A DNA stretch of 64,000 nt from a virus. The position numbers and the translations under genes are program-made. The stretch is taken from positions 1 through 64,000 of IMG/VR virus record IMGVR_UViG_3300027749_000040. One strand, 5' to 3'. The notes below the pieces were generated by a model. It was not told where the DNA came from, ran no database searches, and worked only from the letters and a program-made list of their open reading frames with translations. Positions 40,901-64,000 of the stretch are shown piece after piece. How positions within the stretch are numbered: position 1 is the stretch's first letter; the number at the start of each line of letters is the position of its first letter.

Positions 40901-43900
40901 ACACAATTTAGTATTAGTACCACAGTAGGCGGACTAGTGGTGCCACTATCAACTGCGGTAACTACTGCAGGATTAGACGCAATCATCGGAGAAGTCACAA
41001 ATACTGCTGTCATTTCAATTCAGTATCCCGGTATATTGACATCAACTGCAACATCACAAACAACAAACTTTGTAACAATACCATTGAATCCAAGTGGCAT
41101 TTGTGGAACAACTGGTTTCTATACAGGCATACCAATATTCTTCACGGGTAATGTTTTTGGTGGAGTCATTGAAAATGAAAATTATTATGTAATGACGGTA
41201 ATTGATGACCAGACATTTACAATGTCAACAACTAATAATCCCACAATTGTAACAGTTGAGGCAACTGAAAATGCAGGAGATTATGTTGTATTAAATGAAA
41301 TTGGTGATTTAAATATCAATACACCAATAATTATCACCGGCACAACATTTGGTGGAATTATTGCTGGACAATTATATTATATTGCTTCTATTGATTACAG
41401 TACAAATAAAGTTACACTGTCTAATACAATTAATGGTGGTACAGTTGCATTAACTTCTGCAATCGGTACTGCAACATTAACAAGCCAAGCAAATGCAGTT
41501 CAATTAACTACTGCAACAGGATCAATGACCTGTAATATTGGTTTACCAATCAGCCCGGGGCAAATCACTGGCCAAGAATTTACATTCTATAATACATCCG
41601 GCGAATTTACTAATGGTGGCTCTGGATACTCAGGTACAAATAGTAATTTAATTACTAGAAGTACAGTGGCAACAGTGACTGGTTCTAATTATATGTATTT
41701 GAATTTGTTGGGTGGCGGCTTAACTAATATGTATGTAAACATGCCATTTAGATTATCTACATCAGTCGGTGGTCTATCAGCAGCCACAACATATTATGTT
41801 AAGTCTATGGGCACCGTAGTGGTCGATGTTACAAGTTCAAATGCAGGAACAGAAGAATATACCTGCGCAAGTACAACAGGATTCTACGCGGGAATGCCGA
41901 TATCATTCACCGGTGGTGTGTTTGGTGGAGTTGTTGAATTAGTGACATATTATGTTCGCACTGTTACAGGGCTTACTACATTTACTATAAGTGAAACACC
42001 AAGTGGTAGCACCTTTAACTTAACCGGTGATAATGGATTGATGACATTGACTGCCGATAATCCGTTTATCACGGTTAGTTTAACTGCGGGAGGAACAACA
42101 ATATCATTAACTGATAATTTCTCACCGGCATCTACACTAACACAATACCCAACATCAGCCCCAACATTCTTTGTTAGCTATATGTTAGGTGGATATTCTG
42201 TTGTGATTAACACTGCGGGCACAGGCTTTGCATACAATAATAATATTACACTTCAAGGTGGTCAGGATGATCTGCCCGGTGTAAATGGTATAAATGATAT
42301 TGTAATCAATGTCAGTGGTATCAGTGCCACTGGTGCGATAACATCTACAATTATTTCTGGTACTCCACCTGGATTGACAGAACAATACTACTTAAAAGTT
42401 ATTAGTGCAACTGAATTAGAAGTATATGCTAACCCACTGATGACAGTTCCAGTCAATGGTGATACATTAGGGTTAACATACACGGGAGTTACATCAACCA
42501 ATGTTACTGCTGTTACGGCTGCTAATGATAGATTAACAGTAACTAATTCAGACGACTTTGAATTAAATGATCCAGTTGTATTTACTGGAAGTGTATATAG
42601 TGAATTGACTTTGGGTCAGACTTATTATATTAAAACAAAACCATCGACAACTACAGTTACTATTTCAACTACAATAGGTGGTGGTACATTTAACTTTACT
42701 GGTACCATAGCAGATTTAGAATTTACTATGGCCAAGTCAGGTGATTATGTTTATTTACCAGAACCATTCTACTTCACTCAGAGCATTGTTCGTTATAATA
42801 ATAGACTATACCAATGTATTGTCAGCAACAACGATGCTGATTTCATATTGGGTAAGTGGGAATTGCTAGACAGCGGCGATAGAAAACTCAACGAATTAGA
42901 TCGTATTGTTGGGTACTATAACCCAACAGCAAACATGCCTGGCAGAGACTTAACTCAGCTTGTTACTGGAATTACTTATCCGGGTTCAGTATACATGGAT
43001 AATGCATTTCCTCCGGCAGAAGAATTTTTGCTTGATACTGAATTACAAGACCAACCGTTCTACCCAGCAACAATTAATAATATGTCTGTGGTATGGGACG
43101 GTATCCGTTATGTAACAATATCAACATCACCTACTTATTCTGCACTATTAACAAGTACTACAGGTGATAATTGGGCATTGAGTAAACTAAGCAACAACCC
43201 TGTTGGATTGTCAGATATTTACTACGATGGTAATAGATATGTAATCACTACAACTAATTCAGCAACGCCAATTTATACTAGCACAGATGGGTTAGTATAT
43301 ACAACAGGCCAAACATTGTCAGTGCCTTCTAATACATTAAACCGTGTTTATAATAGCAATGATGTTTGGATAGCAGTTGGTGAAAATGTGATAAAAAGTC
43401 TAGATACTATATCATGGGTAAACTCATTTGCATTATCTAGTCCCGGGTCTTTCTCAGATGTAACATATACCACTGCAGGCTACACTGGATGGTTAGTAAT
43501 TGGTAATCAAACTATCAATGGTGTCGATCAAACCTTAATTATTAGAAGTACGAATGACGGCACTACCTGGAATATTGTTAATGATGGTATTACTACTGTA
43601 ATTACTTCAGCATATGTAAATGCAATTACAAGCAGTAATAGTTTAGTTGTCATTGTAAGTGATGCAGGGCAAATATTTACTAGTACTGACGGTGCTCAAA
43701 CTAATGTAGAGCAAACATCAGGTACAAGTGAAAACTTAGTAGATGTTACTTATGGTAATGGTAAATTTATTGCAGTGGGAGACAATGGCACGATTGTAAC
43801 AAGTAGTGACGGCGTAACATGGACTATAGAAACGTCAACCACAACCAATAACCTAAATAGTGTTGCATATAATGATACTGATTCTAAATTCATTATAGTT

Positions 43901-46900
43901 GGTGACAATAACACTATTTTAACAAGTAGTAATGGATCTACGTGGACTACAAGTGCATTGTTTATACAAGAAGAACCAGTGTATACTGTTCAAGGTGATT
44001 CATTTGCCGAAGGTTACGGACCAGAAGAATTGGTCCCCGGCGTAGTTACTGATAATCTAACTATGATTACAACGACACGTCCCGGTACTAACTGGGCAGT
44101 TGGCGAATACGGTCATACAGGGTTCAATGTTGTATCAATTGAAATTACACCATCTTATCCGCAATATGAATATTCATTCTTAAATGTTGTACAGAACCCA
44201 GTGTTTATAGTAATATATGATATTAATCCAGTAATCGGTACAAGTACTAGAATTTATGAGACATATGATTACACGGTAGATTGGGTTCTAAAAACAATCA
44301 CATTGAATACTACATTAGCTCCTAACCATACATTAGGCATTGAATTATGCGAAGTGGGTAACGGTGATCAGTTACAACGATCAAATTCACAGGCGGTACC
44401 ATTTATTGACAATCCTGATACAGGATTTGTTGAAATGCCACTGAACTGTAATTATTCTGCTAGTAAATTCAATGGCAACGGAGTCATAAGACCAGGAACA
44501 GAACCTGTACAGGTAGAATGCACAAAAACTGAAGCACTCATTGATTCTATAACATGCTCTAGTGTATCTAATTTTGCACTCAATCAATCGGTACAATTCC
44601 AAGGCAATGTATTTGGTGGTATTGAATTGGATCAGACATATTATATTAAAACTATTAGTTATATAACTAATAAAATTACAGTATCACTTCCTCCTCTAGT
44701 GAATGGTATTGCGGGACCAACATATCAATTAAGCAATGATACTGGATCTATGCAAATAATCAGTCAACCGGGTACGGGTCTTGTTTGGACTGACCCACTA
44801 GTAGTACATAATGGTACTAAATTGATACTTGGTGAAACTAGTGTGGTAACTCAAACAAAGAGTTCTACAAATTCAATAGTTGTTAATACATCGTTGACTG
44901 TTGACATAAACGATCCAATTGTATTCAGCGATTATATATTTGGTGGATTGGCCCCTCACACAACTTACTACATTAGTTCAATTGTTGACCTTAATGAATT
45001 TACGGTATCTACCTCATTGGGAGGTAGCATTGTACCATTAACAGATGCATCCGGACTTGCAAGTTTTGTCACGAATGATTTTGCAATTTCTATAGCAAGT
45101 GTAGGACCTACTGCAAAGTTAGTGTTTGCTAATAACTACACAAACACTGAAGACTTTGTTACTTTTGCAGTATTTGGAGAAACAGATCCTATACAATATT
45201 CATATAGTATCCCAATTACACAGATTTATATGTCAACTGGTGGCGAGACACAATTACTGTTGACTAATTATATAGGCGGCACTAATCCTGAAAATGCAGT
45301 AGTAGAAGTTAATGGACTGCGCTTGACAAACACATCGGAATATACTATTGATTTAGTTACTCAAACATTGTATTTGACATTTAGTTTAATTGCGGGCGAT
45401 ATTTTAGCAGTTACTACATATAACAGCACTAACAGACAATACTTACATACCACACTAGGTGGAACCTACAGTGGCTCAGCAAGTATCACATTAAATATAG
45501 GATCAACCACACACTTCCCCGGATACGATGGATCTCCGTACGGAGGCGGTCTTCAGACAGCAGCCGGAAGTTTCTCAATAGGACAAGGTTATACTATTAC
45601 TACTATCAATGATGGTGTAGGTGGCCCAAATACAAATTTCACTTCAATTGGCGCATTGAATAATAACATAGGAACATTCTTTATTGCATCTGGAATTGGT
45701 GCTGGATCTGGTAGTGCATTAGAATCTACTGGTGAAGAGTTCTCGCCTGGACCAGACTATTTAACATTATCATCTGGATCTACGGTTGGTTTAGAACTAA
45801 ACACAGCTATAATATTTGCATCACCAATTGGTGGTATTGTTGCAGGTACGATCTATTACATTGCAGAAATATTAACACCGGGAACAACAAACTTTACGGT
45901 ATCGTTAACACCAGGTGGACCAAGTATACCATTAATTACTGATACGGGCTCTATGCTTGGATTTATTAATCCTCCTAGAGTTTCTAATATTACAGCTATC
46001 AATAATAATATTTCAGCACCGTTAGCAAGAACTAATGTTACACAAACAACAGCCCCAAATACTATTACTGCATCTAGTACTGCTGGGTTCGTAATTGGTC
46101 AACCAATCTTGTTTAAAGGCCTAACAACGACCGGTTTCGGTGGGCTATCAGCAGACGGTACTGTATATTGGATTAATTACATTGATGCAAATGGAATTGA
46201 TTTTAAAGTTTCTGAAACACAGAGTGGTAGTGCATACATAGTTACTAATGCATCAGGTTCAATGTATGCTTATGTAGGTGGAAATGAAGCAGTAACATTA
46301 ACTACCGGTGTTGCTCACAACCTAGTTGAAAATGATATTGTGCGTATTGATGGTGTGGTTGGCTCAGTACAATTGAACAATAATTCTTATTACGCAAAGA
46401 TAATTACTGATACTCAAATTGCTTTGTATCTATCACCATATCAACCACAAAGTTATGCAACGAATGACCCGGTAACTACTGTTTCTTCTTATGTAAGCGG
46501 CGGTTATGTTTGGTTAGATAAGCAATTTACATTAATTGACACCACTGCTACTGCAAGTTCAGCAATTGATAATACTATCACAGTGAACTCTGTTAGTCAA
46601 ATAGTAATTGATACACCTGTATACTTCTCTGGTACAGTGTTTGGAGGAATAGTTGAAGGTACTAAGTACTATGTCAAGTCTATTGATGTACTGAATAGTA
46701 AGATAACACTATCATCAACTTATCAAGGTAGTGAAATAGCAATAACCGCATATGCAGGCACAGATACCATGGGTGTCACAATGTGGGAACAAACTAATGT
46801 TGATAGAATTTGGGTGACAGTAAATGGATATCGAGTTCCATCAAGCTCGCTTGTTATCAATCCAAACAACAATCTAGGTATATTGACAACAATTGTACCA

Positions 46901-47611: not shown

Positions 47612-47764
47612 ATGAATAATCAGGAAAATAATAAAAAACCACAATTAACAGAAGAATATGGCTCAACGCCGGACGAGTCTGGTGGTTTCTATTTTTCATC
47701 TTTTTTGAAAATAACTGATCCAAATACCAAAGAAATTTTAGTCGAAACACGGGGCGATAACTAA
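47612..47764 (+). CDS. Small hypothetical protein (50 aa)
   Basis: MNNQENNKKPQLTEEYGSTPDESGGFYFSSFLKITDPNTKEILVETRGDN*; late box at 47599-47606; TAATG coupling to the next gene; below the ORF-track cutoff. Confidence 0.7.
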   Translation: MNNQENNKKPQLTEEYGSTPDESGGFYFSSFLKITDPNTKEILVETRGDN

Positions 47765-50625: not shown

Positions 50626-50633
50626 TCTAAATA
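50626..50633 (+). promoter_or_regulatory. Late promoter box (TCTAAATA) heading the modification-enzyme operon
   Basis: TAAATA core, AGGAG SD, ATG at 50650. Confidence 0.65.
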
Positions 50634-50649
50634 CTCTTAGGAGTTACAG

Positions 50650-50958
50650 ATGGATACCAAAACCTTAATCAGCGAGGCGAGAGCCAGATTTAATCATAAC
50701 GCTGCCAAAGCTCAATTAAAAGACAAATATGATGGCAAATTTATTGTTGCCGAACAAGGGGGACTTTGGAAAGCAACCCCTGAATTCATTGCATTTTTAA
50801 GTGCATTATCAGATGATAACTTTGTTATATTAATTGATACCTTTGACAACCCAGTAGAAGTTAAGCGTGAACAACTACTAACAATACTAAAAGCTACTTA
50901 TAGTAAAGTCATGCTTGATTGGCACAAAGAATGGAAAGAACTAGAGTCAAAACGATGA
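50650..50958 (+). CDS. Hypothetical protein (first gene of the enzyme operon)
   Basis: 102 aa with strong SD; LID.FDNP motif; ATGA overlap with the next gene. Confidence 0.75.
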   Translation: MDTKTLISEARARFNHNAAKAQLKDKYDGKFIVAEQGGLWKATPEFIAFLSALSDDNFVILIDTFDNPVEVKREQLLTILKATYSKVMLDWHKEWKELESKR

Positions 50959-51758
50959 GTAGAGGAGCAATATTATTTGCATTCAACTCGCCTAAGTTTG
51001 ATTACTACAAAATGGCAGTTGCTACTGCAAAAAGAATTAATCATTTTTTGGATATGCCTGTCACAGTTGTGACAGATGAATCTTCTGTGTCCAATGACCC
51101 TTATAAATTTGACAACACTATATTAGTTGAACCTGATAAAAGCAACTCTAGAGATTGGGGCATGTGGATCAACAAGGGTCGATATCAAGCATATGAACTA
51201 AGCCCATATGATGAAACATTATTACTTGATACTGACTATATGGTCAATTCAAATAAGATATTAGACATATTCAATTATTATGATGACTTTTGCTGTCATA
51301 ATAAAACAAGTTATTTGATGCAACCTGGATTAGTACAAGAAGTTCTTAGCGTTTATAGTTTTGAAACACTATGGGCAACAGTAGTTGCATTTAAAAAATC
51401 AAATCGTACTAAGCAAATATTTGAATGTTTAGAAATGGTTCAGAAAAACTTTGAACATTACAGTAACTTGCATGGATTTGTTGCGGGAACATTTAGAAAT
51501 GATTACGCATTAACCTTAGCACTTAGAATTGCTAATGGTCATTCATTTGCTAAACAAGACTTTATCCCATGGAACTTAGTTCATTTGGGCCAAAAGAATG
51601 TACATATCTATAAAAATAATGATGATGAATTTAACACAGAATATACTGTACTACATGATAATTGGCAACGTGGTAAAATCAAAAAAGAATATACAACAAT
51701 CAAAGACATGGATTTTCATGTGATGAACAAACTTAACTTTATGGAATTAATAGCATGA
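50955..51758 (+). CDS. GT-A glycosyltransferase (GT8/GT71-like)
   Basis: G..LFA, YELSPYDETLLLDTDY (DxD), WATVVAFKK, RNDYA; ATG 50955 overlaps the upstream TGA. Confidence 0.7.
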   Translation: MSRGAILFAFNSPKFDYYKMAVATAKRINHFLDMPVTVVTDESSVSNDPYKFDNTILVEPDKSNSRDWGMWINKGRYQAYELSPYDETLLLDTDYMVNSNKILDIFNYYDDFCCHNKTSYLMQPGLVQEVLSVYSFETLWATVVAFKKSNRTKQIFECLEMVQKNFEHYSNLHGFVAGTFRNDYALTLALRIANGHSFAKQDFIPWNLVHLGQKNVHIYKNNDDEFNTEYTVLHDNWQRGKIKKEYTTIKDMDFHVMNKLNFMELIA

Positions 51759-52531
51759 CTAGAGGTTTTGTAATTATGGCACAGAACACGGAAAAAACTG
51801 ACTATGTAAAGTGTGCTAAAGCATTAGAGTTGAGTATCAAGCGGGTAATGCCAGATGCTAATGTAACTATTATCACAACTGATATTTTGCCACACGGAGA
51901 TCAAGCACCTGATAGTGATTGGAAACTTATTAATGACTGGCAAGTATATGAAGCTAGTCCATATGATGAGACAATCAAGTTAGAAGCTGATATGTTTTTA
52001 CCACGTAGTATTGAGCATTGGTTTGATATTATGTCAATCAATGATGTAACATTGTGTACAAAGATACGAAATTATAAGGGTGAGATTTCTACAGTAAGAG
52101 TTTATAGGAAGTTTATTGATGACAACAATCTACCTGATGTATACAATGCTATTACTTATTTTAAAAAGTCTGAAATGGCAAAACAATTTTTTGATATAGT
52201 AAGAGATGTGTTTGAAAATTGGGAAATATATAAAACAATACTGAAATGTAACCCAACAGAAAAAGCAACAACTGATTGGGTATATGCAATAGCAAGTCAT
52301 ATAATAGGTGTAGAAAAAACAACATTACCTAGTTTTAATGAATTGTCTATGACACATATGAAACAATTTATTTCCGGAACTCCCACTGAAAATTGGACGG
52401 ATACATTGGTGTATGAATTATTGCCAGATGTTTTACGAGTACACACTTATTCACAAGAGTATCCGTTTCACTATCATTCAAAGTCATTTAGTGATAAAAT
52501 AATAGAAAGCTACAAATGGAACACGTATTAA
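51755..52531 (+). CDS. GT-A glycosyltransferase paralog (ExD variant)
   Basis: RGFVIMA, YEASPYDETIKLEADM, YNAITYFKKS, PFHYH.K; clear paralog of the upstream gene. Confidence 0.7.
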   Translation: MTRGFVIMAQNTEKTDYVKCAKALELSIKRVMPDANVTIITTDILPHGDQAPDSDWKLINDWQVYEASPYDETIKLEADMFLPRSIEHWFDIMSINDVTLCTKIRNYKGEISTVRVYRKFIDDNNLPDVYNAITYFKKSEMAKQFFDIVRDVFENWEIYKTILKCNPTEKATTDWVYAIASHIIGVEKTTLPSFNELSMTHMKQFISGTPTENWTDTLVYELLPDVLRVHTYSQEYPFHYHSKSFSDKIIESYKWNTY

Positions 52532-52848
52532 TTTGGGAACCGGTACCATTAGTAAAGCCTGAATTCAGGCTTTACTATGATGACAAAGGTAAAGTTCTTT
52601 TCTATTCATGTGAAAAACTTGAGGGTAATTACATTGTTATAGATGCTACTACATATTCAATTGGTCGACCGGACTTACGAGTTATTGACGGTAAAATTTC
52701 TACAGCAGTACCTAGTTTGGTTGTTTCAAAATTAATGCCAAATAGTGAAGGTATTGCTTGTACTGAAGAAGATATTAGTATTGTAGTAGATAAAAAATAC
52801 AAAGGTAAAACTATTAATTGGAATTTAATAACGTATGAACTCGAATGA
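52516..52848 (+). CDS. Hypothetical protein
   Basis: 110 aa overlapping both neighbours within the operon. Confidence 0.65.
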   Translation: MEHVLIWEPVPLVKPEFRLYYDDKGKVLFYSCEKLEGNYIVIDATTYSIGRPDLRVIDGKISTAVPSLVVSKLMPNSEGIACTEEDISIVVDKKYKGKTINWNLITYELE

Positions 52849-53788
52849 TATTATTGATGTAGCAGATTTAGATTGCATTTATCTAAGTTACGATGAACCG
52901 CAAAAAGAAGAATTTTGGCTTAAAGTCAAACACATGGTGCCATGGGCAAAGCGTGTTGACAATGTTAAAGGTAGTGATGCGGCACACAAAGCCGCAGGTG
53001 AAGCAAGTGATACAGAACGTTTCATTTTAATTGATGGTGATAACATGCCAGAAGAAAGTTTCTTCAACATTCAATTAGATTTTACAGACAAAGACAAAAC
53101 ATTCAGAAAAGCACAGTTTAGATGGAAAGCAATTAACAGTATCAATGGCTTGCGCTATGGTAATGGTGGTATGAGCAGTTGGACAAAGACTTACGTGCGT
53201 GAAATGCAAACGCATGAGCATCAAACGGAGGGTGATGTTTCACGTATAGCTGACTTTTGTTTAGACAGCAAAGATAATCTATATTGGGCGATGCATGATT
53301 GTTACAGTACAACATATCCTAACTATACAAGTTTTCAAGCGTGGCGTGCAGGTTTCCGTGAAGGTGTTAAAATGAGTTTGAATCGAGGCGTGCGCCCAAC
53401 GGTAGATGAATTCAAAGAAACAGTTGCAAGCAGAAATCTAAACAACTTGACTATCTGGCAGAACGTGGGAATGGATGTAGAGAACGGTGAGTGGGCGATC
53501 ATGGGAGCACGTATGGGAACTCATATGACTATGCTAACTGATTGGGACGTACATAATGTTCAATGGTTTGATAACTATCCTGCAATGTGGGAGACAGTTA
53601 AAGATGAAGACCCACTAGAACTATCAGAAACATATGGTGTTGAACTAAGCACTAAGCTAGGCTTACCAATGTGTGCGTTAGATAGTAAACAGAGTAAGTT
53701 TTTCAAGCGACACTATGGATCAAATTTTCATAACAAAGGTCCACTAGTAACTGAGATGGAAGTGATTCGTGAGATTGAAGGTTGGTAA
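52835..53788 (+). CDS. GT-A-fold nucleotide-sugar transferase-like protein
   Basis: IYLSYDEP, AAHKAA, FILIDGDN (DxD), NGLRYGNGG, AWRAGFREGVKM. Confidence 0.6.
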   Translation: MNSNDIIDVADLDCIYLSYDEPQKEEFWLKVKHMVPWAKRVDNVKGSDAAHKAAGEASDTERFILIDGDNMPEESFFNIQLDFTDKDKTFRKAQFRWKAINSINGLRYGNGGMSSWTKTYVREMQTHEHQTEGDVSRIADFCLDSKDNLYWAMHDCYSTTYPNYTSFQAWRAGFREGVKMSLNRGVRPTVDEFKETVASRNLNNLTIWQNVGMDVENGEWAIMGARMGTHMTMLTDWDVHNVQWFDNYPAMWETVKDEDPLELSETYGVELSTKLGLPMCALDSKQSKFFKRHYGSNFHNKGPLVTEMEVIREIEGW

Positions 53789-54450
53789 TGCAATTATATG
53801 ATCCATCTAAGAAAGGCACAATTGTAGTTGGACATATGCGTTCAGGTTCTCAATATTTATTGAGTCTAGTTAAAATAGAATTGCAAAAAAATAATGTTGA
53901 ATTTGATGACAACGGAGAATACTTTAAAGATATATTCAGTGCCATTAGATATACTGATAATAGTTACTCATTCTTAAATATTATTGACAAAATAAAAAAA
54001 CAGGACATTAGTACTAATTATAGTGTGGGTACAATCGTCTATCCTAATAGCTTAGATATGATTAGTCAGCATAAGTCAAATTATAATTATTTTTCTAATA
54101 ATTATCATCTTATTAAAATGATTAGAAAAGATGTTATGGCACAATTTATGTCATACATGGTATTTATTGAATCAAAGGCACTACATAGCGGTATAAAATC
54201 AATGGACGAAGTTAAAATAAATACTCCTTATACAGCAGGCAGACTTCATATAATACATTATCTAAATAAACTATTAGAATTAGAAAGATTTAAGGCTGAC
54301 ACAACTGTATACTATGAAGATTTACCGCACTTACCCATACCAGGTCTAACAAAAAATAATTATAATATGACCCCTAAAGAATTTTTTAAAAATTACGATG
54401 ATATTGTAAATCAAATTAACGAATTAAATATAACACATTATGAGCGGTGA
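53788..54450 (+). CDS. Sulfotransferase-like protein (Stf0-type PAPS-binding P-loop)
   Basis: 5'-PSB-like MRSGSQYL, 3'-PB-like RKDVMAQFMS, C-terminal YEDL. Confidence 0.6.
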   Translation: MQLYDPSKKGTIVVGHMRSGSQYLLSLVKIELQKNNVEFDDNGEYFKDIFSAIRYTDNSYSFLNIIDKIKKQDISTNYSVGTIVYPNSLDMISQHKSNYNYFSNNYHLIKMIRKDVMAQFMSYMVFIESKALHSGIKSMDEVKINTPYTAGRLHIIHYLNKLLELERFKADTTVYYEDLPHLPIPGLTKNNYNMTPKEFFKNYDDIVNQINELNITHYER

Positions 54451-56005
54451 ATACGATCAATTCGCTAGAGATATGCGTGACCGCTTGAATGCGGTTAGTC
54501 CATCACTATGTTTGGCAAAGTGGCAACAAGTCTCTATTCACTTACCTAGTGGATTGACTCAAAGTTGCTATCATCCACCAACACATAAGATACCTCTAGA
54601 ATTACTCAAAGACAATCCTAGCGTATTACACAACACCCCAATCAAAATACATGAACGTAAGCAAATGCTTGAGGGCAAACGACCAGAAGGTTGTAGTTAT
54701 TGCTGGAAAGTAGAAGACGCTAAGAGCGAAGACCCTAAAGGTCATATGAGTGACAGACACTATCGCAGTAGCGAATGGTGGAACGCACCCACGTTTGAAG
54801 AAGTCACACAAAACAAGTTTGATTATGATGTTGTACCTCGGTATGTAGAAGTTAACTTTAATCAGGCATGTAACTTTAAATGTATGTATTGTAGTCCTCA
54901 TCTTTCTAGTAGTTGGGAAGAAGAAGTTAAAAAGCATGGTGGTTATCAATTAACCGGTATGATACATAATAACTTAAAAGCACTAGAACAAAAAGGAATG
55001 ATGCCACTCAAGGTTGCAAATAAAGACAACCCCTATGTTGAAGCATTCTGGCAATGGTTTCCTGAAATATATCGTAAACTACGTGTGTTTAGAATGACCG
55101 GTGGCGAGCCACTTATGGACAAGAACACATTCAAAGTGTTAGACTATGTAAACAAAAACCCACACGGTCAACTTGAATTATCTATCACAAGCAACATGTG
55201 CCCGCCCGATCAGAAATTATTTGACAAATTTGTTGAAAAAGTCAAAGCAATTGAGACACTACGCACATATGAAGACACAGAAAACTTCAATGTACATAGC
55301 GGTAACAACTGGTATGTAGACAAAGGATTCAAACACTTTTGGTTGTTTGTATCACTAGATGGTTTTGGTGAGCAAGCAGAATATATGAGAACTGGATTAG
55401 AGTTTGAACGCATGTTGAATAACGTAAGAACTTTTTTACGTGAAACAAAATATTCTACTGTGAGTTTTATAAACACATTCAATATCATGTCTATTCCAAG
55501 TTTACATAAGTTCTTAGAAATGGTATTAGAATTACGTGCTGAGTTTGGTGGAAGAAGTCAAGTTGAGTTTGAGATTAGTCCTGACCAAACTGAAACAGAA
55601 AAAGAAAATAACATTGTTCACAAGGTTTATACTCAAAAGAAATATCAACGTGTGTTCTTTGATATTCCAATATTACGTTACCCGCCGTGGTTTAATATTC
55701 AAAACAGCGGACAATATGGAATTGATGAAGTAGAACGTTGCTTGAAGTATATGGAAGACAATGTACAGGGTGATGACTATTTGGAAACATTTGAGGGATT
55801 TAAACCGTATGAGATATTGAAAATTAAGCGAGACCTTGCTATAATGAAAGAATCTCTACCCCCGGACCAACTTTTACTAAATAAAAAGAACTTCTACATG
55901 TTTATTACAGAATATGATAGACGCAGACAAACGAATTTTATGGAAACCTTTCCGGAACTAAAGAGCTACTGGAGAGAATGTATCAAAGCGCACACTAAAC
56001 ATTAA
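54440..56005 (+). CDS. Radical SAM enzyme 1 with N-terminal twitch/SPASM-like module
   Basis: CLAKW..SCYHP..CSYC; CNFKCMYC; GGEP; C-terminal YDRRR..NF..TFPEL. Confidence 0.9.
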   Translation: MSGEYDQFARDMRDRLNAVSPSLCLAKWQQVSIHLPSGLTQSCYHPPTHKIPLELLKDNPSVLHNTPIKIHERKQMLEGKRPEGCSYCWKVEDAKSEDPKGHMSDRHYRSSEWWNAPTFEEVTQNKFDYDVVPRYVEVNFNQACNFKCMYCSPHLSSSWEEEVKKHGGYQLTGMIHNNLKALEQKGMMPLKVANKDNPYVEAFWQWFPEIYRKLRVFRMTGGEPLMDKNTFKVLDYVNKNPHGQLELSITSNMCPPDQKLFDKFVEKVKAIETLRTYEDTENFNVHSGNNWYVDKGFKHFWLFVSLDGFGEQAEYMRTGLEFERMLNNVRTFLRETKYSTVSFINTFNIMSIPSLHKFLEMVLELRAEFGGRSQVEFEISPDQTETEKENNIVHKVYTQKKYQRVFFDIPILRYPPWFNIQNSGQYGIDEVERCLKYMEDNVQGDDYLETFEGFKPYEILKIKRDLAIMKESLPPDQLLLNKKNFYMFITEYDRRRQTNFMETFPELKSYWRECIKAHTKH

Positions 56006-56013
56006 GGAATAAA

Positions 56014-57540
56014 ATGGCAGGCAAGAAACACGAAGAATCATTTGCACAATACAAATCACGACTTATCGACCCCATTAGCGATAGCTATTGTGCCGCTAAG
56101 TGGCTAAATGCTACTATCTGGTTAGGCAACGGACAAACAACCAGTTGTCACCACCCATTAGGTCATCAAATTGATGTCAATGAACTAGCCACAAATCCTT
56201 CAGCAATTCATAATACTCCGCACAAGAAACTAATGCGTAAAATGATGCAAGAAGGACAACGCCCGCAAGAGTGTGAATACTGCTGGAAGATTGAAGATAT
56301 TGGTCGTGATAACATGAGTGATCGTGTTTATAAAACTGCTGTGTTTGAAGAATCAGATATTCTTAAAACTGCCAAAGCAGATTGGCAAGAGAATACAATG
56401 TTGAAGACATTAGAAGTTTCTTTTGACCGTACATGTAATTTTGCTTGTAGTTATTGTAATCCAAGTTTCAGTACAACATGGGTTAAAGATATTCACAAGT
56501 TTGGTCCTTATCGTAACATTGACGGTGATGCACGTAGTCACTTTATCAATGAAGCTGACCATGCTAAACCACTAGCGGACGATATTAATCCATATTCACA
56601 GGCATTTTGGCGCTGGTGGGAAGAAGGACTTGCTGACAACTTAGAAGAAATTCGCATTACGGGTGGTGAACCATTAATGGCTCCGGGTGTATGGAAGTTG
56701 TTTGAATGGTTTCGTAATAATCAAGAACGTGCGACAAATCGTCCAGACGGTAAGGTATTGCGCTATGCTATCAACAGTAACTTAGTTCCCAAAGATGATA
56801 TCATGGACAAGTTAATTGAGTATAGCAAATTTGTTCCCTATATGGAAGTATATACAAGTTGTGAAGCTTTTGGTGCTCATGCTGAATATATCCGTGATGG
56901 TTTTGAATGGAACAAATGGATTCATAACCTAGGTAGATTGCACACTGAAGGCAATATCAAAAAGACACACATGATGATGACTATCAATAGTTTGTGTTTG
57001 GCTAGTATTGTTGAGTTCATGGATCAAATGATGGAATTCAAAAAGATTCACAACACGATGTATCCTACAATGAGTTTAAACATCTTGCGTTTCCCTAGCT
57101 TTCAAAGTTGTGCTATGTTGCCAACTGAGATTCGCCAAAAGTATAAAGACAAACTACAGGTATGGTTAGACAATCAGATTGCTATGGATTTCCGTACTAG
57201 TGAAGGTGCACCAATGTTGATGAGTATTGAGCGTGAACAAACACAACGATTGATTGATTACCTTGACGTTGTTAAAACACCACACAAGAATGTTAAAGAC
57301 ATTCCGCAGAATCATAGAGACTTTAAACAGTTCTATGCTCAATATGATGTCCGTCGTGGTAAGAGTTTCCGTAATACTTTTCCACCAGAGTTTGTTGCAT
57401 TCTATGATAGTATTCAAACAGAATTGCCAACAGCAGATGAAATTATTACACAAAATTACCGTCAAGGTGTTGATTTGATTCCGGAGCATCCACCTGAAGA
57501 TCCAAGCAAAGATGTATTTTTTAACCAAGATTTACAATGA
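56014..57540 (+). CDS. Radical SAM enzyme 2 with N-terminal twitch/SPASM-like module
   Basis: CAAKW..SCHHP..CEYC; CNFACSYC; GGEP; YDVRRG.SF..TFP. Confidence 0.9.
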   Translation: MAGKKHEESFAQYKSRLIDPISDSYCAAKWLNATIWLGNGQTTSCHHPLGHQIDVNELATNPSAIHNTPHKKLMRKMMQEGQRPQECEYCWKIEDIGRDNMSDRVYKTAVFEESDILKTAKADWQENTMLKTLEVSFDRTCNFACSYCNPSFSTTWVKDIHKFGPYRNIDGDARSHFINEADHAKPLADDINPYSQAFWRWWEEGLADNLEEIRITGGEPLMAPGVWKLFEWFRNNQERATNRPDGKVLRYAINSNLVPKDDIMDKLIEYSKFVPYMEVYTSCEAFGAHAEYIRDGFEWNKWIHNLGRLHTEGNIKKTHMMMTINSLCLASIVEFMDQMMEFKKIHNTMYPTMSLNILRFPSFQSCAMLPTEIRQKYKDKLQVWLDNQIAMDFRTSEGAPMLMSIEREQTQRLIDYLDVVKTPHKNVKDIPQNHRDFKQFYAQYDVRRGKSFRNTFPPEFVAFYDSIQTELPTADEIITQNYRQGVDLIPEHPPEDPSKDVFFNQDLQ

Positions 57541-58934
57541 CGAATAAAATCATTCCATTATGGGAACACGCAAAGCCCCATAAAGATAGTAAGAACAAGG
57601 TGTTCTGTATGGCACCCTGGACTCACACTTATATCAGTCCGCAATCTGAAAGACGATTGTGCTGTGCCTCACGTGAAGAACATTCGTTCCAGAAACAATA
57701 CATTGATAGTAGTAATGATTCAAAGTACGGAACTGTAACTGAAAGTAAGACAGCATTAGATGACTATCAACCGGTAAGTTTGAAAGAACATTGGAATAGT
57801 GAATACATGAAAGACATTCGTGTGAAGCTAATGCGCGGTGAAGAAATTCCTCAATGTGATGTATGTAATAAGAACCTATTGATGGAGGGCTATTCATACC
57901 GTGGTTGGTTTACTGGATCATTGTTTAAAGATAAGATACAAGAAGCATTTGATAAGACAGATGATACCGGTCACACTACAATGGAACCAATAAGTTTTGA
58001 TTATCGTTTTAGTAATCTATGTAACTTTAAGTGCCGCATGTGCGGTGAGCAATTGTCTAGTTCATGGGAAACTGAAAAGAAAGTTCATAACTTGTGGAAC
58101 GAGAAGAATCAGCCATTCATGGTTCCTGAAATCAAGTCAGCTATGAAGACTTTTCAAGAAGAAGTTGTTGAAGTTGAATTTCGTGATGCAGTAAGTCGCG
58201 GTATTGTGGAAGAAATGTATTGGGTCGGTGGTGAGCCATTAATGTATGACGTTCACTGGTGGACGCTAGAAGAAATGTTAAAGAACGGTAGTAACAAGAA
58301 TTGCTATATGCGTTATAACAGCAACTTAAGTAGGGTACAGTTTGGTAAAAAGAACTTATATGACTATCTTCCATTGTACAAAGACTGGATGATGTGCGCT
58401 AGTATTGATGGTACTGGAGAGATTGTAGAATACATTCGCACAGGTATCAAGTGGGATGTGTGGCTTGAGAACTTTAAGAAAGGTCTTGAGTTACCTAATG
58501 GTAAAGACAAGATGATTCTTGATCTAACATTAACTGCACCGGGCATGTTTAGTTTGAAAGAACTATTTGACTTGAGTATTGAATTAGATGTTAAGATTGA
58601 AACTAAAACAACGTTTGGCTTTCATGCTGACATTATGTGGACACCATTAAGTTGGCCACGTGAGGTACTAGATGAAATGATTGATGACATACTTGCTTAT
58701 ATTCAACCACGTGCTACTTGGAAGCAAGCAACGTTGATTGGTAATTTAGAAGCATTGAAGAATACACGGAAGACTCATGCAGAAGAATGGCCCGATACTT
58801 ATAAGCAAGCCGCATTGAATGGTAAAAATTGGGTTAAAAGATTAGAAAATATTCGTGAAGACACTGCCGTTACCATGCGTAGCATTTATAGTCGAAATCC
58901 TAAACTACTAGAATGGTGGGATAACATAGGATGA
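57537..58934 (+). CDS. Radical SAM enzyme 3 with N-terminal twitch/SPASM-like module
   Basis: CMAPW..LCC..CDVC; CNFKCRMC; GGEP; SIDG. Confidence 0.9.
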   Translation: MTNKIIPLWEHAKPHKDSKNKVFCMAPWTHTYISPQSERRLCCASREEHSFQKQYIDSSNDSKYGTVTESKTALDDYQPVSLKEHWNSEYMKDIRVKLMRGEEIPQCDVCNKNLLMEGYSYRGWFTGSLFKDKIQEAFDKTDDTGHTTMEPISFDYRFSNLCNFKCRMCGEQLSSSWETEKKVHNLWNEKNQPFMVPEIKSAMKTFQEEVVEVEFRDAVSRGIVEEMYWVGGEPLMYDVHWWTLEEMLKNGSNKNCYMRYNSNLSRVQFGKKNLYDYLPLYKDWMMCASIDGTGEIVEYIRTGIKWDVWLENFKKGLELPNGKDKMILDLTLTAPGMFSLKELFDLSIELDVKIETKTTFGFHADIMWTPLSWPREVLDEMIDDILAYIQPRATWKQATLIGNLEALKNTRKTHAEEWPDTYKQAALNGKNWVKRLENIREDTAVTMRSIYSRNPKLLEWWDNIG

Positions 58935-60160
58935 ATAGTTTGATAAGCCCTACATATTGCGTATTGCCATGGTCTCATCTGTATGCAGGGCCAGATGGAA
59001 ATATAGCACCATGTTGTGTGGGTAAAAAATTAGGAAAATATGAAGAAACTACATTAAAAGAAGCTTGGAATACTAGTGAAATGAAACAGTTGCGTTTAGA
59101 TATGATAGCAGGTGAGAAGAATGATATATGTAATGTATGTTATAATCATGAAAATGGTGGTTTCAAATCAATGCGACAAGCTTTCATCAATGAAATGCCA
59201 GATGTTACAAAAAATGTAGTAGAGATGACAAATGTAGATGGTTCTTTGTCGGATTTCAAATTATATCATTTAGATTTACGATTTAATAATCTTTGTAATT
59301 TTAAATGCAGAACATGTGGACCAAGCTTTAGTAGTTCTATTGCAATTGAATCTATACAAAATCCTAAATTAAATTTTAAAAACTTTCCTGCTTTTAAGGG
59401 ATTTAGCCAAAATCAAGGGCTTATGTCAGAGATTGAAAAACACTATCCTTATGTAAAAAGTATTTATTTTGCAGGTGGTGAACCAATGATGCAAGAAGAA
59501 CACTGGGACATATTACAACATTTTACCGAGAACGATACAGCAAAAAATGTGCACCTAATATATTCTACAAATACTAGTAAGACATCATACAAAAACAAAT
59601 CAGTATTTGATTATTGGAAATACTTCAAAGATGTTCATGTTCAAATGAGTATTGACGCTGAAGGCAAGCGGGCAGAATATTGGCGTGATGGTACGGATTG
59701 GGAAACAGTATATAACAATATTAAGCTCATTAGTTCTAGCGGAGTATATTGTACTGTGCATAGCGTCATCTCATGGATGAACATTTATAGTTATATAGAA
59801 TTAGTTAAAAAACTACTTGAAGAAAAAATAATACCTGCTAATAAGTTTACTATATGGTGCCTAGCTGACACTGAAAAAGAAGAATATTCACTACAAATAT
59901 TACCTGACTTTAAAAAACAAGAAATATCACTGGCATTAAATGATTTTATCTTATATTTGCAAAAGTGTGATAACTCACTTTATCCTAAAATAGATCATAT
60001 CATAAAAAATATAGAAAACATAAAAACTTTTATGTTTGCTAAATCACTGACTATTACCAATGAAATATTTAAAAGAAACAATATGTTAGATGAAATTAGA
60101 AATAAAGATTTTTTTGAATATTTTCCAGAACACGAAAATATGAGAGAGTATATTAAATGA
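58931..60160 (+). CDS. Radical SAM enzyme 4 with N-terminal twitch/SPASM-like module
   Basis: CVLPW..PCC..CNVC; CNFKCRTC; GGEP. Confidence 0.9.
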   Translation: MNSLISPTYCVLPWSHLYAGPDGNIAPCCVGKKLGKYEETTLKEAWNTSEMKQLRLDMIAGEKNDICNVCYNHENGGFKSMRQAFINEMPDVTKNVVEMTNVDGSLSDFKLYHLDLRFNNLCNFKCRTCGPSFSSSIAIESIQNPKLNFKNFPAFKGFSQNQGLMSEIEKHYPYVKSIYFAGGEPMMQEEHWDILQHFTENDTAKNVHLIYSTNTSKTSYKNKSVFDYWKYFKDVHVQMSIDAEGKRAEYWRDGTDWETVYNNIKLISSSGVYCTVHSVISWMNIYSYIELVKKLLEEKIIPANKFTIWCLADTEKEEYSLQILPDFKKQEISLALNDFILYLQKCDNSLYPKIDHIIKNIENIKTFMFAKSLTITNEIFKRNNMLDEIRNKDFFEYFPEHENMREYIK

Positions 60161-61335
60161 GTAACACACTATGCGTATTACCTTGGATGCATTTAGCAAC
60201 TCATCCAAACGGGGGTGCTAGCCTGTGTTGCCGTAGTAATCACACAGATGCAATTAGTTGGGCAAAAAAGAAAGACAGTAATAGTCTTGTCATGCTAGAT
60301 AATGATAGCGTAGAAGATATAATGAACAGTGAAAAGTTTGTTGAAGTCAGGCAAGCAATGATTGATGGCAAACGTCCAGTTGAATGTGAAGGTTGTTGGA
60401 GTGATGAAGATAAAGGCATAAAAAGTAAACGCCAATATGAGAACGAGCGTTGGGCACACATTATCCCTAAACTTGAACAAAAAGCGAAGCTCAGTGATAT
60501 CAACTTAATATATGTGGAACTACGTTTGGGTAATGTGTGCAACAATGCCTGCTTAACTTGTAATAGTTATAGCAGTACAAAGTGGTATCCTGATGAAAAG
60601 AAAATTGCTAACGATTTACCTTGGTTCAAACTACGAGCAATGGAGAACTTCAAGTGGTTTGAGAATGAAGATTTTTATTGGGATTTAGCAAATAAAAGTC
60701 AATCTGTAGAAGAAATCTATATTAATGGTGGAGAGCCTACACTTATTAAGGCTCACTTTGAATACTTAAAGCATTTGATTACATTAGGTACAGCACAGAA
60801 CGTGCATCTTGTTTATAGTTTGAATATGATGGACATCCCTGACAGGTTAATTGAGTTGTGGAAAGAATTTAAACAGGTTACAGTTAATGCTAGTATTGAT
60901 GATTTAGGAAACCGTAACTATTACATTCGTTATCCTACACAATGGGAAGAAACGATTGCAAGTATTGAAAAACTGACTAAATTATCAAATTTAAATTGGC
61001 ATGTTACTCAGACTGTTAGTATTTTAAATATCTATCATCTAGCAGAGTTTGGTAATTGGTTAGAAACAAACTATAACAAAACACCGCATCACAACTATGT
61101 ATTGTATCCGGATTATTTAAGCATTGCGGCACTGCCTGATTTCTATAAAGAAGAATTGCGTAGTCATTATGCAAGTAGACTGCATGAGTGGCAGCGCAAA
61201 GATTTGCTTAATAAGTTACATGAACCTTACCAACCAACCTTGCTAAAAAAGGCAAAAGAGTTTATAATAGCAGTTGACAAGGCACGTGGTTTAGATTATA
61301 ATAATTATATACCAGAATTAAAAGAAATATTATGA
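60157..61335 (+). CDS. Radical SAM enzyme 5 with N-terminal twitch/SPASM-like module
   Basis: CVLPW..LCC..CEGC; CNNACLTC; GGEP. Confidence 0.9.
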   Translation: MSNTLCVLPWMHLATHPNGGASLCCRSNHTDAISWAKKKDSNSLVMLDNDSVEDIMNSEKFVEVRQAMIDGKRPVECEGCWSDEDKGIKSKRQYENERWAHIIPKLEQKAKLSDINLIYVELRLGNVCNNACLTCNSYSSTKWYPDEKKIANDLPWFKLRAMENFKWFENEDFYWDLANKSQSVEEIYINGGEPTLIKAHFEYLKHLITLGTAQNVHLVYSLNMMDIPDRLIELWKEFKQVTVNASIDDLGNRNYYIRYPTQWEETIASIEKLTKLSNLNWHVTQTVSILNIYHLAEFGNWLETNYNKTPHHNYVLYPDYLSIAALPDFYKEELRSHYASRLHEWQRKDLLNKLHEPYQPTLLKKAKEFIIAVDKARGLDYNNYIPELKEIL

Positions 61336-62618
61336 TACCAATTATACCCGATAAAATTAAAGACTCATTCTGTTCAGCTAAATGGCTGATGGCTACCATG
61401 CACTTTGGCATGGGCGAGAATCACAGTTGTTACCACCCGCCAATTCATCGTTGGAACTTAGAAGATGTTCAGCGTGATCCTAGTATGCTACACAATACAC
61501 AACACAAGATTGAACAGCGTAGACAAATGATGAATGGTGAGAAGCCAAAAGAATGCTATTACTGCTTTGATATGGAAGCAATCAATCCTGATGTGATTAG
61601 CGATAGAAAGCGTTTTACTAACGAACCTTATGCGATTGAACGCAGACAGGAATTAATTGACGCACCATTTGACAAACACGTTAATCCAAGTTACTTAGAA
61701 TTAAGCTTCAGCAATGTGTGTAATTTTGGTTGTAGTTATTGCAGTCCTGGACAAAGTAGTAAGTGGGAGAATGAAGTACGTAAGTATGGTAGTTATCCCG
61801 TAGAAGATCCAACTGTGCATAAAGACAAGATGCATGACATGCTCCCTGAAGATAATAATCCATACATTGATGCATTTTGGAAGTGGTTACCTGATGCATA
61901 TAAAGATTTAAAGTATTTACGTATTACAGGTGGCGAGCCATTAGCAACACGAAACTTTATGAGACTTCTAGACTTTGTAGCAGAGAATCATAACCCTAAC
62001 TTAACATTAGTTGTTAATACTAACTTATGTGTGCCTGACAAGAACTTGAATATGTTTTTTGAGAAGGCAACAACATTATTAAATGCTAAAACAATTAAAG
62101 GTCTTGAAGTATATACCAGTATGGATACATGGGGACCTCAAGCAGAATACATACGTGACGGTTTAGATATCGCACGTTGGGAAGCAACTGTACGCAAAGT
62201 AAGCACAACATTCCATGTACCTATACGTGTAATGGTTACATTTGGATTGATGAGTATTTTTAACTTCCTTACGTTTGCTGAAAAGGTTATACAGATGCGT
62301 AATGACGGGGTTGACATCATGTTTAACTGTGCCAGACTTGTAGATCCTAAGCAATTTGACCTCAGAATACTACCAGACTACTGCGATAAATACTTCACTA
62401 AGATGAACACGTTTATAATAGATAACAATAATATTACTAATGTTGAAAGAGAAACATGGGCTATGGTCTATGATTTTTGGAAAGCAAGACACGAAACTAT
62501 GACAACTGAAGACCGCGAATGGCGCAGGCAGCAGTTTGCTAAGTTTATTAGCGAATATGATAAGCGTAGAGATAAAAACTTTGAAGAAAACTTCCCAGAA
62601 TTATCAACATGGATTTAA
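61332..62618 (+). CDS. Radical SAM enzyme 6 with N-terminal twitch/SPASM-like module
   Basis: CSAKW..SCYHP..CYYC; CNFGCSYC; GGEP; YDKRR..NF..NFPEL. Confidence 0.9.
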   Translation: MIPIIPDKIKDSFCSAKWLMATMHFGMGENHSCYHPPIHRWNLEDVQRDPSMLHNTQHKIEQRRQMMNGEKPKECYYCFDMEAINPDVISDRKRFTNEPYAIERRQELIDAPFDKHVNPSYLELSFSNVCNFGCSYCSPGQSSKWENEVRKYGSYPVEDPTVHKDKMHDMLPEDNNPYIDAFWKWLPDAYKDLKYLRITGGEPLATRNFMRLLDFVAENHNPNLTLVVNTNLCVPDKNLNMFFEKATTLLNAKTIKGLEVYTSMDTWGPQAEYIRDGLDIARWEATVRKVSTTFHVPIRVMVTFGLMSIFNFLTFAEKVIQMRNDGVDIMFNCARLVDPKQFDLRILPDYCDKYFTKMNTFIIDNNNITNVERETWAMVYDFWKARHETMTTEDREWRRQQFAKFISEYDKRRDKNFEENFPELSTWI

Positions 62619-63817
62619 CACCGTTTAAAGAATGTAGAGCACATAAAAATGCAATCTATATAGGAAATGATGATGCACCATTTAGACCTTGTTGTTGGTT
62701 TGCAGATAAAATTGATGCTACATCATATGAAGAATATCAGGATAAATTATCACATTTAGACATTGAAAAAAATTGTAGATATTGTATTGAGATGGAGTCA
62801 AATGGCGGAGAATGGAGCCATCGCATGAATTTTGCTAAGGCACTGGAAGATCCAGACTGGTATCAGGAATTGGTAGTATCAATATCATTTGATAATTTGT
62901 GCAATTTAAAATGTATTACATGCTCACCTGTAAATAGCTCCCAGTTAGCAATTGAAATTTTAAATCCTGAGATTAGAGAAAAATATACTTCAATACATAA
63001 AAAAGAACCAATTAAGACTGAGTTTTTAAAAAATATGTTATCTAATACTGAATTTAATTATAATACTGAATTTAGTTATAAAACTATTACAGAAGGTAAT
63101 GCTAATTATAGTAACCTTCGTATAGAAATACTAGGCGGAGAACCTTTAATAAATCCTGCAGTATATAATTTTTTAGATTGGTTAGTAGAGCAACCATATG
63201 CGTCAGTAACAGCAGTAAGCATTACTACCAATGGGACTATATTTAATGACAAATTTATAAAATATATAAAACATTTACACCATATCTCTTTGCAATTTAG
63301 TATTGATGGTATAGAAGACACGTTTGAATATATAAGATTTGGTTCAAAATTTTCTACTCTTGAAGAAGTTACTAATAAATTTTATGACCTGCTCGCCCTA
63401 TACCCTGAAAAATTTAAAATGGCAATGCACTACACATTGAGTTGGATGAACTCACTGCACATTAAAGAATTTTTTAATTGGGTTAATGTTAATTATCCTG
63501 AAGTACAATATATATTGGTTACAAAACTTGAGTGGCCAAATAATTATGATATTAATGTTTTGCCAATGGATTTGAGAAAACAAATAGTTGAAGAAATATC
63601 AAACAGTATTGTTGGTTATAATGACGGGGTTCAATTGGGATTTAAATATTATAAACAGCATATGCTTAATACTCCAAATAATACAAAAGTATCTTATAAT
63701 GTACAAAGAGGTATGAACGCTTTAGCTAAAAATGATAAACTTATAAATAGAAATTCAGACTTCAATAAAACTTTTAAACCAATGCTAGATTTACTAAAAA
63801 CAAATAATATTATATGA
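62609..63817 (+). CDS. Radical SAM enzyme 7 with shortened N-terminal Cys module
   Basis: C..PCC..CRYC; CNLKCITC; GGEP; SIDG. Confidence 0.88.
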   Translation: MDLTPFKECRAHKNAIYIGNDDAPFRPCCWFADKIDATSYEEYQDKLSHLDIEKNCRYCIEMESNGGEWSHRMNFAKALEDPDWYQELVVSISFDNLCNLKCITCSPVNSSQLAIEILNPEIREKYTSIHKKEPIKTEFLKNMLSNTEFNYNTEFSYKTITEGNANYSNLRIEILGGEPLINPAVYNFLDWLVEQPYASVTAVSITTNGTIFNDKFIKYIKHLHHISLQFSIDGIEDTFEYIRFGSKFSTLEEVTNKFYDLLALYPEKFKMAMHYTLSWMNSLHIKEFFNWVNVNYPEVQYILVTKLEWPNNYDINVLPMDLRKQIVEEISNSIVGYNDGVQLGFKYYKQHMLNTPNNTKVSYNVQRGMNALAKNDKLINRNSDFNKTFKPMLDLLKTNNII

Positions 63818-64000
63818 TTCCTGCAGAAAAAGCACTAACTAGCAAAACATTTTGTACGTACCCTTGGATACATCAATATGTGGGTCCTGACGGCGAAGTA
63901 AAACCATGCTGTATTTATAAACCCAATGGGTCAGGTGTTGGTAATATCAAAGATGCCCCTTTATCTAAAATATGGAATAACGATAACTCAAAGCAAATGC
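63814..64000 (+). CDS. Radical SAM enzyme 8 (N-terminal twitch module only; runs off the right window edge)
   Basis: ATGA overlap; MIPAEKALTSKTFCTYPWIHQYVGPDGEVKPCCIY...LSKIWN, the same N-terminal motif as enzymes 3-5. Confidence 0.8.
   Translation, partial: MIPAEKALTSKTFCTYPWIHQYVGPDGEVKPCCIYKPNGSGVGNIKDAPLSKIWNNDNSKQM

Follow-up and report, generated by a model that had tools for sequence, protein, structure and literature searches.

A structural-module operon of glycosyltransferase-like and radical SAM genes in an uncultured freshwater giant phage: a candidate system for building and editing a virion glycan

Closest described systems

We analysed a stretch of 64,000 nt (the window), i.e. 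the first 64 kb of the 174,470-bp IMG/VR virus record IMGVR_UViG_3300027749_000040, judged to be ~50 % complete, and in particular an operon that starts on its + strand at position 50650, behind a set of fibre-like genes, and encodes glycosyltransferase-like (GT) proteins followed by a long array of radical S-adenosylmethionine (rSAM) enzymes. The source is an uncultured freshwater giant phage and, since a syntenic relative of 352 kb was judged complete, a jumbo myovirus. Known systems of virion glycosylation, i.e. that of mycobacteriophage capsids and tails (Freeman 2023, as cited in PMC12801897) and that of chlorovirus PBCV-1 with its A64R enzyme, resemble the operon in that GT-A enzymes are encoded beside structural genes. 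In contrast to the operon, they have no known rSAM tailoring, and the virion glycan considered here is a predicted one.

Radical SAM genes have been reported from related settings in environmental phages. A T4-like environmental genome with 12 rSAM genes was described by Nishimura 2017 (PMC5332604), and Zaragoza-Solas 2020 described a hypervariable host-recognition cluster of pelagimyophages and cyanomyophages that contains tail fibres, GT8-type GTs and rSAM cassettes (PMC7029224). As in the operon, these cassettes differ between close genomes and lie beside the fibres and GT8-type GTs. Neither paper assigns the enzymes to a family, separates core from accessory genes or considers a bacterial context, and the GTs were read as modifiers of the host O-chain.

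The only cultured carrier found was the soil-derived Ralstonia jumbo phage RsoM2USA. Its ORF348-353 (accession number MG752970), all annotated as hypothetical, comprise two GT8-like genes, a small gene, a homologue (41 % identity) of the GT2-like gene g08 of the operon, a rSAM gene of the same N-terminal-twitch (N_Twi) type and a second g08-like gene; it differs by having one rSAM gene versus 13 in the operon. The RsoM2USA module lies downstream of virion proteins confirmed by mass spectrometry (MS), and ORF361, the counterpart of the giant protein encoded upstream of the operon, was found in the virion by MS at >288 kDa (PMC8504454). Otherwise, a megablast search of 50,697 phage records with the region gave no match, and tblastn against phage records yielded no more than weak rSAM relatives, present as single copies in KVP40-like Vibrio phages and RsoM2USA.

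The rSAM genes belong to NF033640 (NCBIfam N_Twi_rSAM, twitch domain-containing radical SAM; curated cut-off 170 bits), a family that is catalogued but unstudied, and our literature search found no paper on it. Fourteen paralogues of the phage score above the cut-off and share the N-terminal four-Cys twitch of the family ahead of a CxxxCxxC core; distinct from other settings of NF033640 is the presence of 13 members in one phage operon tied to glycosyltransferases. The founding twitch enzyme is BtrN, a 2-deoxy-scyllo-inosamine dehydrogenase with one auxiliary cluster and a carbohydrate-like substrate. The BtrN twitch domain (PDB 4M7T) is the PDB match to the N_Twi N-terminal domain, with positions 9-82 of the paralogue profile aligning to it at E 2e-6, but it is C-terminal in BtrN and N-terminal, i.e. 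permuted, in N_Twi, and as regards the rSAM core BtrN is matched no more closely than SkfB, viperin or MoaA.

An earlier note on this DNA, made from its letters and reading frames, had stated that no characterised pathway of this form was known. As regards function this still stands, whereas the enzymes themselves are members of the catalogued NF033640 and the cassettes are already in print (PMC5332604, PMC7029224). For this genome, the present analysis establishes how core and accessory genes are arranged, which folds support the three GT-like proteins, the mosaic identity along the array, the Wzt-linked bacterial cassette and the accessory status of the sulfotransferase-like gene.

A conserved core and exchangeable radical SAM genes

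At least 600 viral contigs encode g08, and our comparative set comprised 80 viral loci (L102-L181) with 10-kb flanks. The gene order giant-f1-f2-f3-s4-GT8-like-GT8-like-s7-g08 was found in 80/80 loci, with occasional single genes missing or inserted; the order f1-f2-f3 is kept across the set, and a homologue of the giant protein precedes the module in most loci. Behind this core follow 0 to at least 7 N_Twi genes per 10-kb flank, often together with genes of a family that we call u29 and sometimes with a carbamoyltransferase. Across carriers the number of rSAM genes ranges from 0 to 14 while the GT core stays. At least 8000 homologues of g08 were found, the best 120 clusters all being at least 83 % identical, and one N_Twi paralogue has >1400 homologues. 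Along 54440-70100, identity to the two closest relatives (L018 and L019) switches gene by gene between 91-96 % and 44-72 % (about 95 % vs ~60 %), which indicates recombinational exchange of single rSAM cassettes.

Within the window, 14 co-oriented genes run on the + strand from 50650 to the window end, encoding two small proteins, three GT-A-fold proteins, one sulfotransferase-like protein and eight rSAM enzymes, the eighth being partial. All junctions overlap by 1-16 nt apart from an 8-nt gap at 56005/56014. The genes g05 and g09 start at ATG 50955 and ATG 53788 (a TAATG overlap), respectively, and TTG codons upstream are not used as starts. The operon runs on equally tightly beyond the window to ~82140, with 29 genes in total and a single 84-nt gap at 74050. 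No convincing + strand terminator was found inside it, the hairpins being few and weak (14 vs 8.6 ± 2.8 in shuffles).

At the operon head lie a late-type promoter box, TCTAAATA, and an AGGAG ribosome-binding site (50626..50649, + strand), 16 nt before the first ATG. The motif [ACT]TAAATA is present within 40 nt upstream of 25 of the 78 genes preceded by a gap of 15 nt or more, versus 1.6 % of random 40-mers, and the box is therefore a real promoter-like element; its spacing at the operon head is that seen at the baseplate genes. It resembles the T4 late box, and by analogy with such T4-type motifs the operon would be expressed late. Thus, what the earlier note had read from the letters about gene content, tight co-oriented junctions, a late-type box at the head and the lack of an internal terminator agrees with the ORF coordinates, the motif enrichment and the hairpin counts.

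The core itself consists of five genes on the + strand. The gene g05 (50955..51758) encodes a GT8-like retaining GT-A glycosyltransferase as judged from its predicted fold and DxD motif. Its AlphaFold2 (AF2) model (pLDDT 95) adopts a GT-A fold with glycogenin (GT8) and GT6 as top Foldseek matches in the PDB (prob 1.0, E 2e-7, TM ~0.5), the protein matches viral GT8 sequences, and in the DxD motif D92 is kept in at least 90 % of 72 homologues while D94 is invariant. Its paralogue g06 (51755..52531; E 7e-48 with the hidden Markov model of the g05 family) matches phrog_1903, the sole hit of g04-g09 in the Pfam, NCBIfam and PHROGs family scans. Neither g05 nor g06 matched a curated GT8 model, Pfam and NCBIfam being silent even at E 10, and PDB profiles gave no match to the g05 family. 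The two small genes, s4 (50650..50958, 102 aa) and s7 (52516..52848, 110 aa), are conserved, with homologues of s4 in the same place in relatives and s7 syntenic in most of them; family-library scans gave no match to either.

The third GT candidate, g08 (52835..53788), is the most conserved gene of the module and is predicted to carry a GT2-like GT-A domain (aa 3-172) and a helical C-terminal half. The top Foldseek matches of its AF2 model (pLDDT 82) are all GT2-type GT-A enzymes, weak as they are (E 3e-4 to 1e-2, TM 0.2-0.37), and PBCV-1 A64R is among the structural matches. A VIA comparison of aa 3-172 with B4GALNT1 gave a Z of 8.8, and D67-G-D69 is invariant. Alignments by hhalign of g08 with bacterial GT2 and of g05 with g08 reached 2-3 % probability, yet the DxD region was the aligned stretch.

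The accessory gene g09 (53788..54450, + strand) is sulfotransferase-like by predicted structure and an RSGS motif. Its Atlas model aligns to clusters of Stf0, NodH and Sulfotransfer_3 (TM 0.65-0.72), and no sequence match was found in Pfam, NCBIfam, PHROGs or the PDB. Both closest relatives lack it, and 1/80 related loci has it, i.e. it is a strain-specific accessory whose model resembles Stf0/NodH-type carbohydrate sulfotransferases. The earlier GT-A and sulfotransferase-like calls, made from motifs, were therefore good calls, with fold-level tests supporting all three GTs (g08 moderately) in spite of the silence of Pfam and NCBIfam, and with structural matches supporting g09. The idea that the product is a sulfated glycan was overstated, given the distribution of g09.

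Seven complete N_Twi genes follow on the + strand within the window (54440-56005, 56014-57540, 57537-58934, 58931-60160, 60157-61335, 61332-62618 and 62609-63817), scoring 185-346 bits on NF033640. The eighth (63814-65121, with 63814..64000 in the window) scores 348 bits and has a SPASM match at its N-terminus (E 5e-11), and five more N_Twi genes extend up to 70100. A conventional rSAM/SPASM gene with a C-terminal SPASM (70100-71272; only 47-48 bits on NF033640) is followed by one more N_Twi gene at 72746-74050. In the whole record 14 ORFs score above the cut-off (179-352 bits), 13 of them in the operon and one at 100960-102081, which bears out the earlier count of at least eight rSAM paralogues continuing past the window.

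In the three complete paralogues where Pfam finds both domains, SPASM (~aa 6-111) precedes Radical_SAM (~aa 119-315), and this order, with the twitch N-terminal, is the reverse of the usual one. C10, C29, C67, C70, C122/C126/C129 (CNxxCxxC) and GGEP are invariant in the 14 paralogues despite only 20-36 % identity, so the paralogues look old and are predicted to be catalytically intact. In the PDB, their core is closest to the uncharacterised rSAM protein 8VPO, then to SkfB, viperin, GDGT-MAS, BlsE and MoaA. A maximum-likelihood tree of 250 non-redundant sequences comprises two major clades, each with seven of the phage paralogues, and bacterial and viral sequences are interleaved inside the subclades, suggesting that the paralogues are distinct subfamilies rather than recent duplicates. 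Recent duplication within the phage was considered and rejected on the same tree, where most paralogues fall into old subfamilies common to bacteria.

Substrate, acceptor and competing explanations

The operon follows a block of virion genes, in line with the structural-gene context claimed in the earlier note. Baseplate hub, baseplate wedge and virion structural genes lie upstream of it according to PHROGs. The conserved block proper begins with a single ORF for a 6219-aa virion structural protein (the giant protein; 28934..47593, + strand; phrog_10938, E 1e-128) and continues on the same strand with three fibre-like genes, i.e. f1 (47764-48384), which matches phrog_11259, f2 (48416-49639), with an N-terminal match to a virion structural protein and a C-terminal Peptidase_G2 (intramolecular chaperone) domain, and f3 (49650-50603), with 26 % Ser+Thr. 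C-terminal intramolecular-chaperone domains are typical of tail fibres and spikes. Encoding of the GTs within the structural module, as expected of a phage virion glycosylation system, was thus seen in 80/80 loci and in RsoM2USA.

Carbohydrate is likely to be the substrate, in line with the glycan option of the earlier note, judging from the three GT-A folds, a carbamoyltransferase, SGNH-like proteins, a sugar-nucleotide gene pair and the polysaccharide loci in which bacterial relatives reside. Two SGNH-like genes in the distal part of the operon, g24 (71997-72749, + strand) and g26 (74135-74959, + strand), match an SGNH-like family that adjoins bacterial N_Twi genes. They are followed by a NodU/CmcH carbamoyltransferase (74956-76452, + strand) with Carbam_trans_N and Carbam_trans_C (Pfam E ~1e-33 and 4e-47, respectively); its score on the NodU model, 136 bits, is under the equivalog cut-off. 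Elsewhere in the record, an SDR NDP-sugar epimerase/dehydratase (93963-94937), a DegT/EryC1 sugar aminotransferase and a 315-aa rSAM gene form a row spanning 93963-97106, in the same region as the 14th N_Twi gene, and the 315-aa protein matches a family that also adjoins bacterial N_Twi genes (E 5e-41).

Among bacteria, N_Twi genes were found in Bacteroidota, Bdellovibrio-type predators, Elusimicrobia and further groups, frequently as several copies (up to 8). Their neighbours (144 genes in 19 loci) most often matched the Pfam families PhyH (9), GT2 (8), ABC transporter (5), rSAM (5), GDSL/SGNH (5) and methyltransferases, two of the five ABC transporters carrying a Wzt C-terminal glycan-binding domain. 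In 24 of the 48 bacterial loci that span 12 kb or more, at least one gene for GT2, Wzt, SGNH, PhyH, carbamoyltransferase or WelO5 lies within 5 kb (Wzt in 9). Bacteroidota chromosomes (L082, L050, L036, L100 and L060) repeat a cassette of SGNH, N_Twi (1-3), PhyH (1-6), WelO5-like and Wzt genes, joined once by a carbamoyltransferase, which suggests a coupling of oxidative and radical tailoring to O-polysaccharide export. The bacterial neighbourhoods thus have the same make-up as ABC-transporter-dependent polysaccharide loci (Wzt, GT2, SGNH, carbamoyltransferase) and have three families in common with the phage operon. Unlike such O-polysaccharide loci, the operon has no Wzm/Wzt or any other membrane component.

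Taken together, we consider it plausible, with the arguments evenly balanced, that a soluble, late operon of the structural module builds a glycan and edits it by radical chemistry, probably on virion proteins; its sugar substrate, virion acceptor, single chemistries and late timing are what we infer. The invariant core, i.e. two GT8-like retaining GT-A enzymes, a GT2-like one and two small partners, would assemble a short sugar chain, for which a conserved structural protein encoded in the neighbouring fibre/baseplate block is the most likely acceptor. Each N_Twi paralogue would then use a 5'-deoxyadenosyl radical and one auxiliary [4Fe-4S] cluster to abstract a sugar hydrogen, and would oxidise, epimerise, dehydrate or rearrange one position, in the way that BtrN acts on an aminocyclitol; by this analogy, the reactions would be oxidation, epimerisation or dehydration at sugar carbons. 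The SGNH-like proteins, the NodU-type O-carbamoyltransferase and the strain-only sulfotransferase may add further groups, and gain, loss and exchange of rSAM genes as cassettes would create a variable 'serotype' on a constant scaffold.

Several points weigh against this reading. In g06, EAD replaces DxD, so that the first Asp is missing and the motif is kept only in part. The GT assignment of g08, which is based on models, is moderate: nucleotidyltransferases score nearly as well as B4GALNT1 (Z ~7.5-7.9), and hhalign against bacterial GT2 gave 2.6 % probability. The late timing is taken from a motif, and the sugar substrate from context only. Glycan-type neighbours were found in only half (24/48) of the bacterial loci, and the PDB proteins that best match the rSAM core include the peptide maturase SkfB. 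Finally, the virion proteins identified in RsoM2USA are those of abundant gel bands only (PMC8504454).

The main rival is that the operon remodels a host envelope polysaccharide, such as O-antigen or capsule, and thereby blocks superinfection or stops progeny from sticking to debris. This has been proposed for the GT8-rich clusters with rSAM cassettes of pelagimyophages (PMC7029224), would fit the Wzt-type O-polysaccharide loci of bacterial N_Twi genes, and could proceed on an undecaprenyl-linked intermediate at the cytoplasmic face. In our view it is nevertheless rather unlikely. None of the enzymes of the 29-gene operon has a predicted membrane helix, and no flippase or exporter was found among them; moreover, a late-type promoter would leave little time for surface turnover. 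The core GTs are strongly conserved (see the g08 clusters above, and the 41 % identity to the Ralstonia phage from soil) and stay joined to the fibre genes in phages of widely differing hosts, so that a phage-encoded acceptor fits better than variable host glycans. Virion glycosylation is thus the leading reading, since a GT core that is conserved and fixed to fibre genes across freshwater, marine and soil hosts, with no export machinery, is best explained by a conserved acceptor encoded by the phage.

Less likely than either virion glycosylation or host remodelling are three further readings: modification of protein, a soluble product and modification of DNA. In the first case the rSAM enzymes would introduce crosslinks, epimerised residues or other changes into the giant fibre or neighbouring structural proteins, with the GTs acting separately. 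In favour of this, SPASM/twitch enzymes often mature peptides, SkfB ranks second among the PDB sequence matches (E 2.5e-11) and the array adjoins the block of the 6219-aa virion protein. On the other hand, BtrN is the closest match of the twitch domain itself, the number of rSAM genes changes against a background of conserved structural proteins, and what adjoins the bacterial genes is GT2, SGNH, PhyH and Wzt, not peptides, proteases or peptide exporters. No precursor, recognition element or protease/exporter of a ribosomally synthesised and post-translationally modified peptide was recognised in the operon or among the 144 bacterial neighbours, very short ORFs not being screened. We therefore regard protein modification as improbable.

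A soluble product, i.e. unusual NDP-sugars or an aminoglycoside-like small molecule instead of a virion glycan, seems more improbable still. The palette is indeed aminoglycoside-like: the phage has BtrN-type twitch rSAM enzymes as well as a carbamoyltransferase of the TobZ/NodU type, and PhyH is present in the bacterial loci. In addition, one N_Twi gene lies in the region of the SDR/DegT pair; however, the three GT-fold genes form an invariant core fixed in the structural block, and the operon contains no exporter or resistance gene. A pathway that hypermodifies the DNA of the phage, glycosylating, carbamoylating or radically rearranging a base substituent, is very improbable: such pathways can include GTs and radical SAM isomerases (PMC5889632, PMC8989533), but the operon stands behind a late-type promoter in the fibre module, apart from the replication genes, its bacterial homologues are in polysaccharide loci, and family scans of the 29 genes found no base hydroxymethylase, kinase, transglycosylase or DNA-binding enzyme.

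Further genes and biological meaning

At its distal end the operon encodes a 1565-aa protein (76463-81160, + strand) in which aa 1342-1500 form a GT domain like that of g08 and the other ~1340 residues could be assigned to no family, and, as last gene, a member of u29 (81157-82140, + strand). The u29 family (300-510 aa; 61 ORFs in L102-L181) is interleaved with rSAM genes in many relatives. Its conserved motifs, LNGR.R.HR and VTET ... TEK..KP, presumably recall those of the fucosyltransferase type. Neither the downstream proteins of 243, 250, 274, 327 and 1565 aa nor the 50-member u29 family matched Pfam, NCBIfam or PHROGs, and PDB sequence and profile searches gave nothing useful for u29 and the 1565-aa protein. 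The gene g23 starts with a GDS motif like g24, though BLASTP found no paralogy between the two and g23 did not match the SGNH-like family.

Five loci filed under metagenome-assembled genomes (MAGs) of Haliscomenobacter, Betaproteobacteria TMED41, Legionellales and Verrucomicrobia TMED56 (L023-L027) carry the phage GT module and N_Twi genes. L023 has fibre-like genes in addition, and a carbamoyltransferase is present in L023, L024 and L026. These are probably phage contigs binned into bacterial MAGs. The phage record also encodes an A-type Fe-S cluster carrier (132062-132364; PF01521, E 4e-20), of which the complete relative has two; this fits the heavy load of Fe-S enzymes and is in line with Nishimura 2017 (PMC5332604).

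More tentatively, and with the balance of probability against the full version, one may speculate that the operon is a system of combinatorial glycan editing, in which each ancient N_Twi subfamily performs a different undescribed radical reaction on a sugar, and swapped cassettes vary the sugar coat of fibre or particle on a constant GT scaffold. This would amount to a virion 'serotype' system, with the same toolkit decorating the O-polysaccharides of Bacteroidota and Bdellovibrio-type bacteria, and it would affect host range, defence evasion or particle survival. The module belongs to the hypervariable region in which abundant giant phages of aquatic habitats encode host recognition, and its product is therefore likely to influence host range or the fitness of the particle. 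The culturable RsoM2USA, with its one-rSAM version, makes the question directly testable. If virion glycosylation is the correct reading, phages would tailor a self-made glycan by radical SAM chemistry, a large catalogued family with a permuted twitch domain would gain its first function, and several new carbohydrate reactions might be found among its subfamilies, of which up to 14 are distinct.

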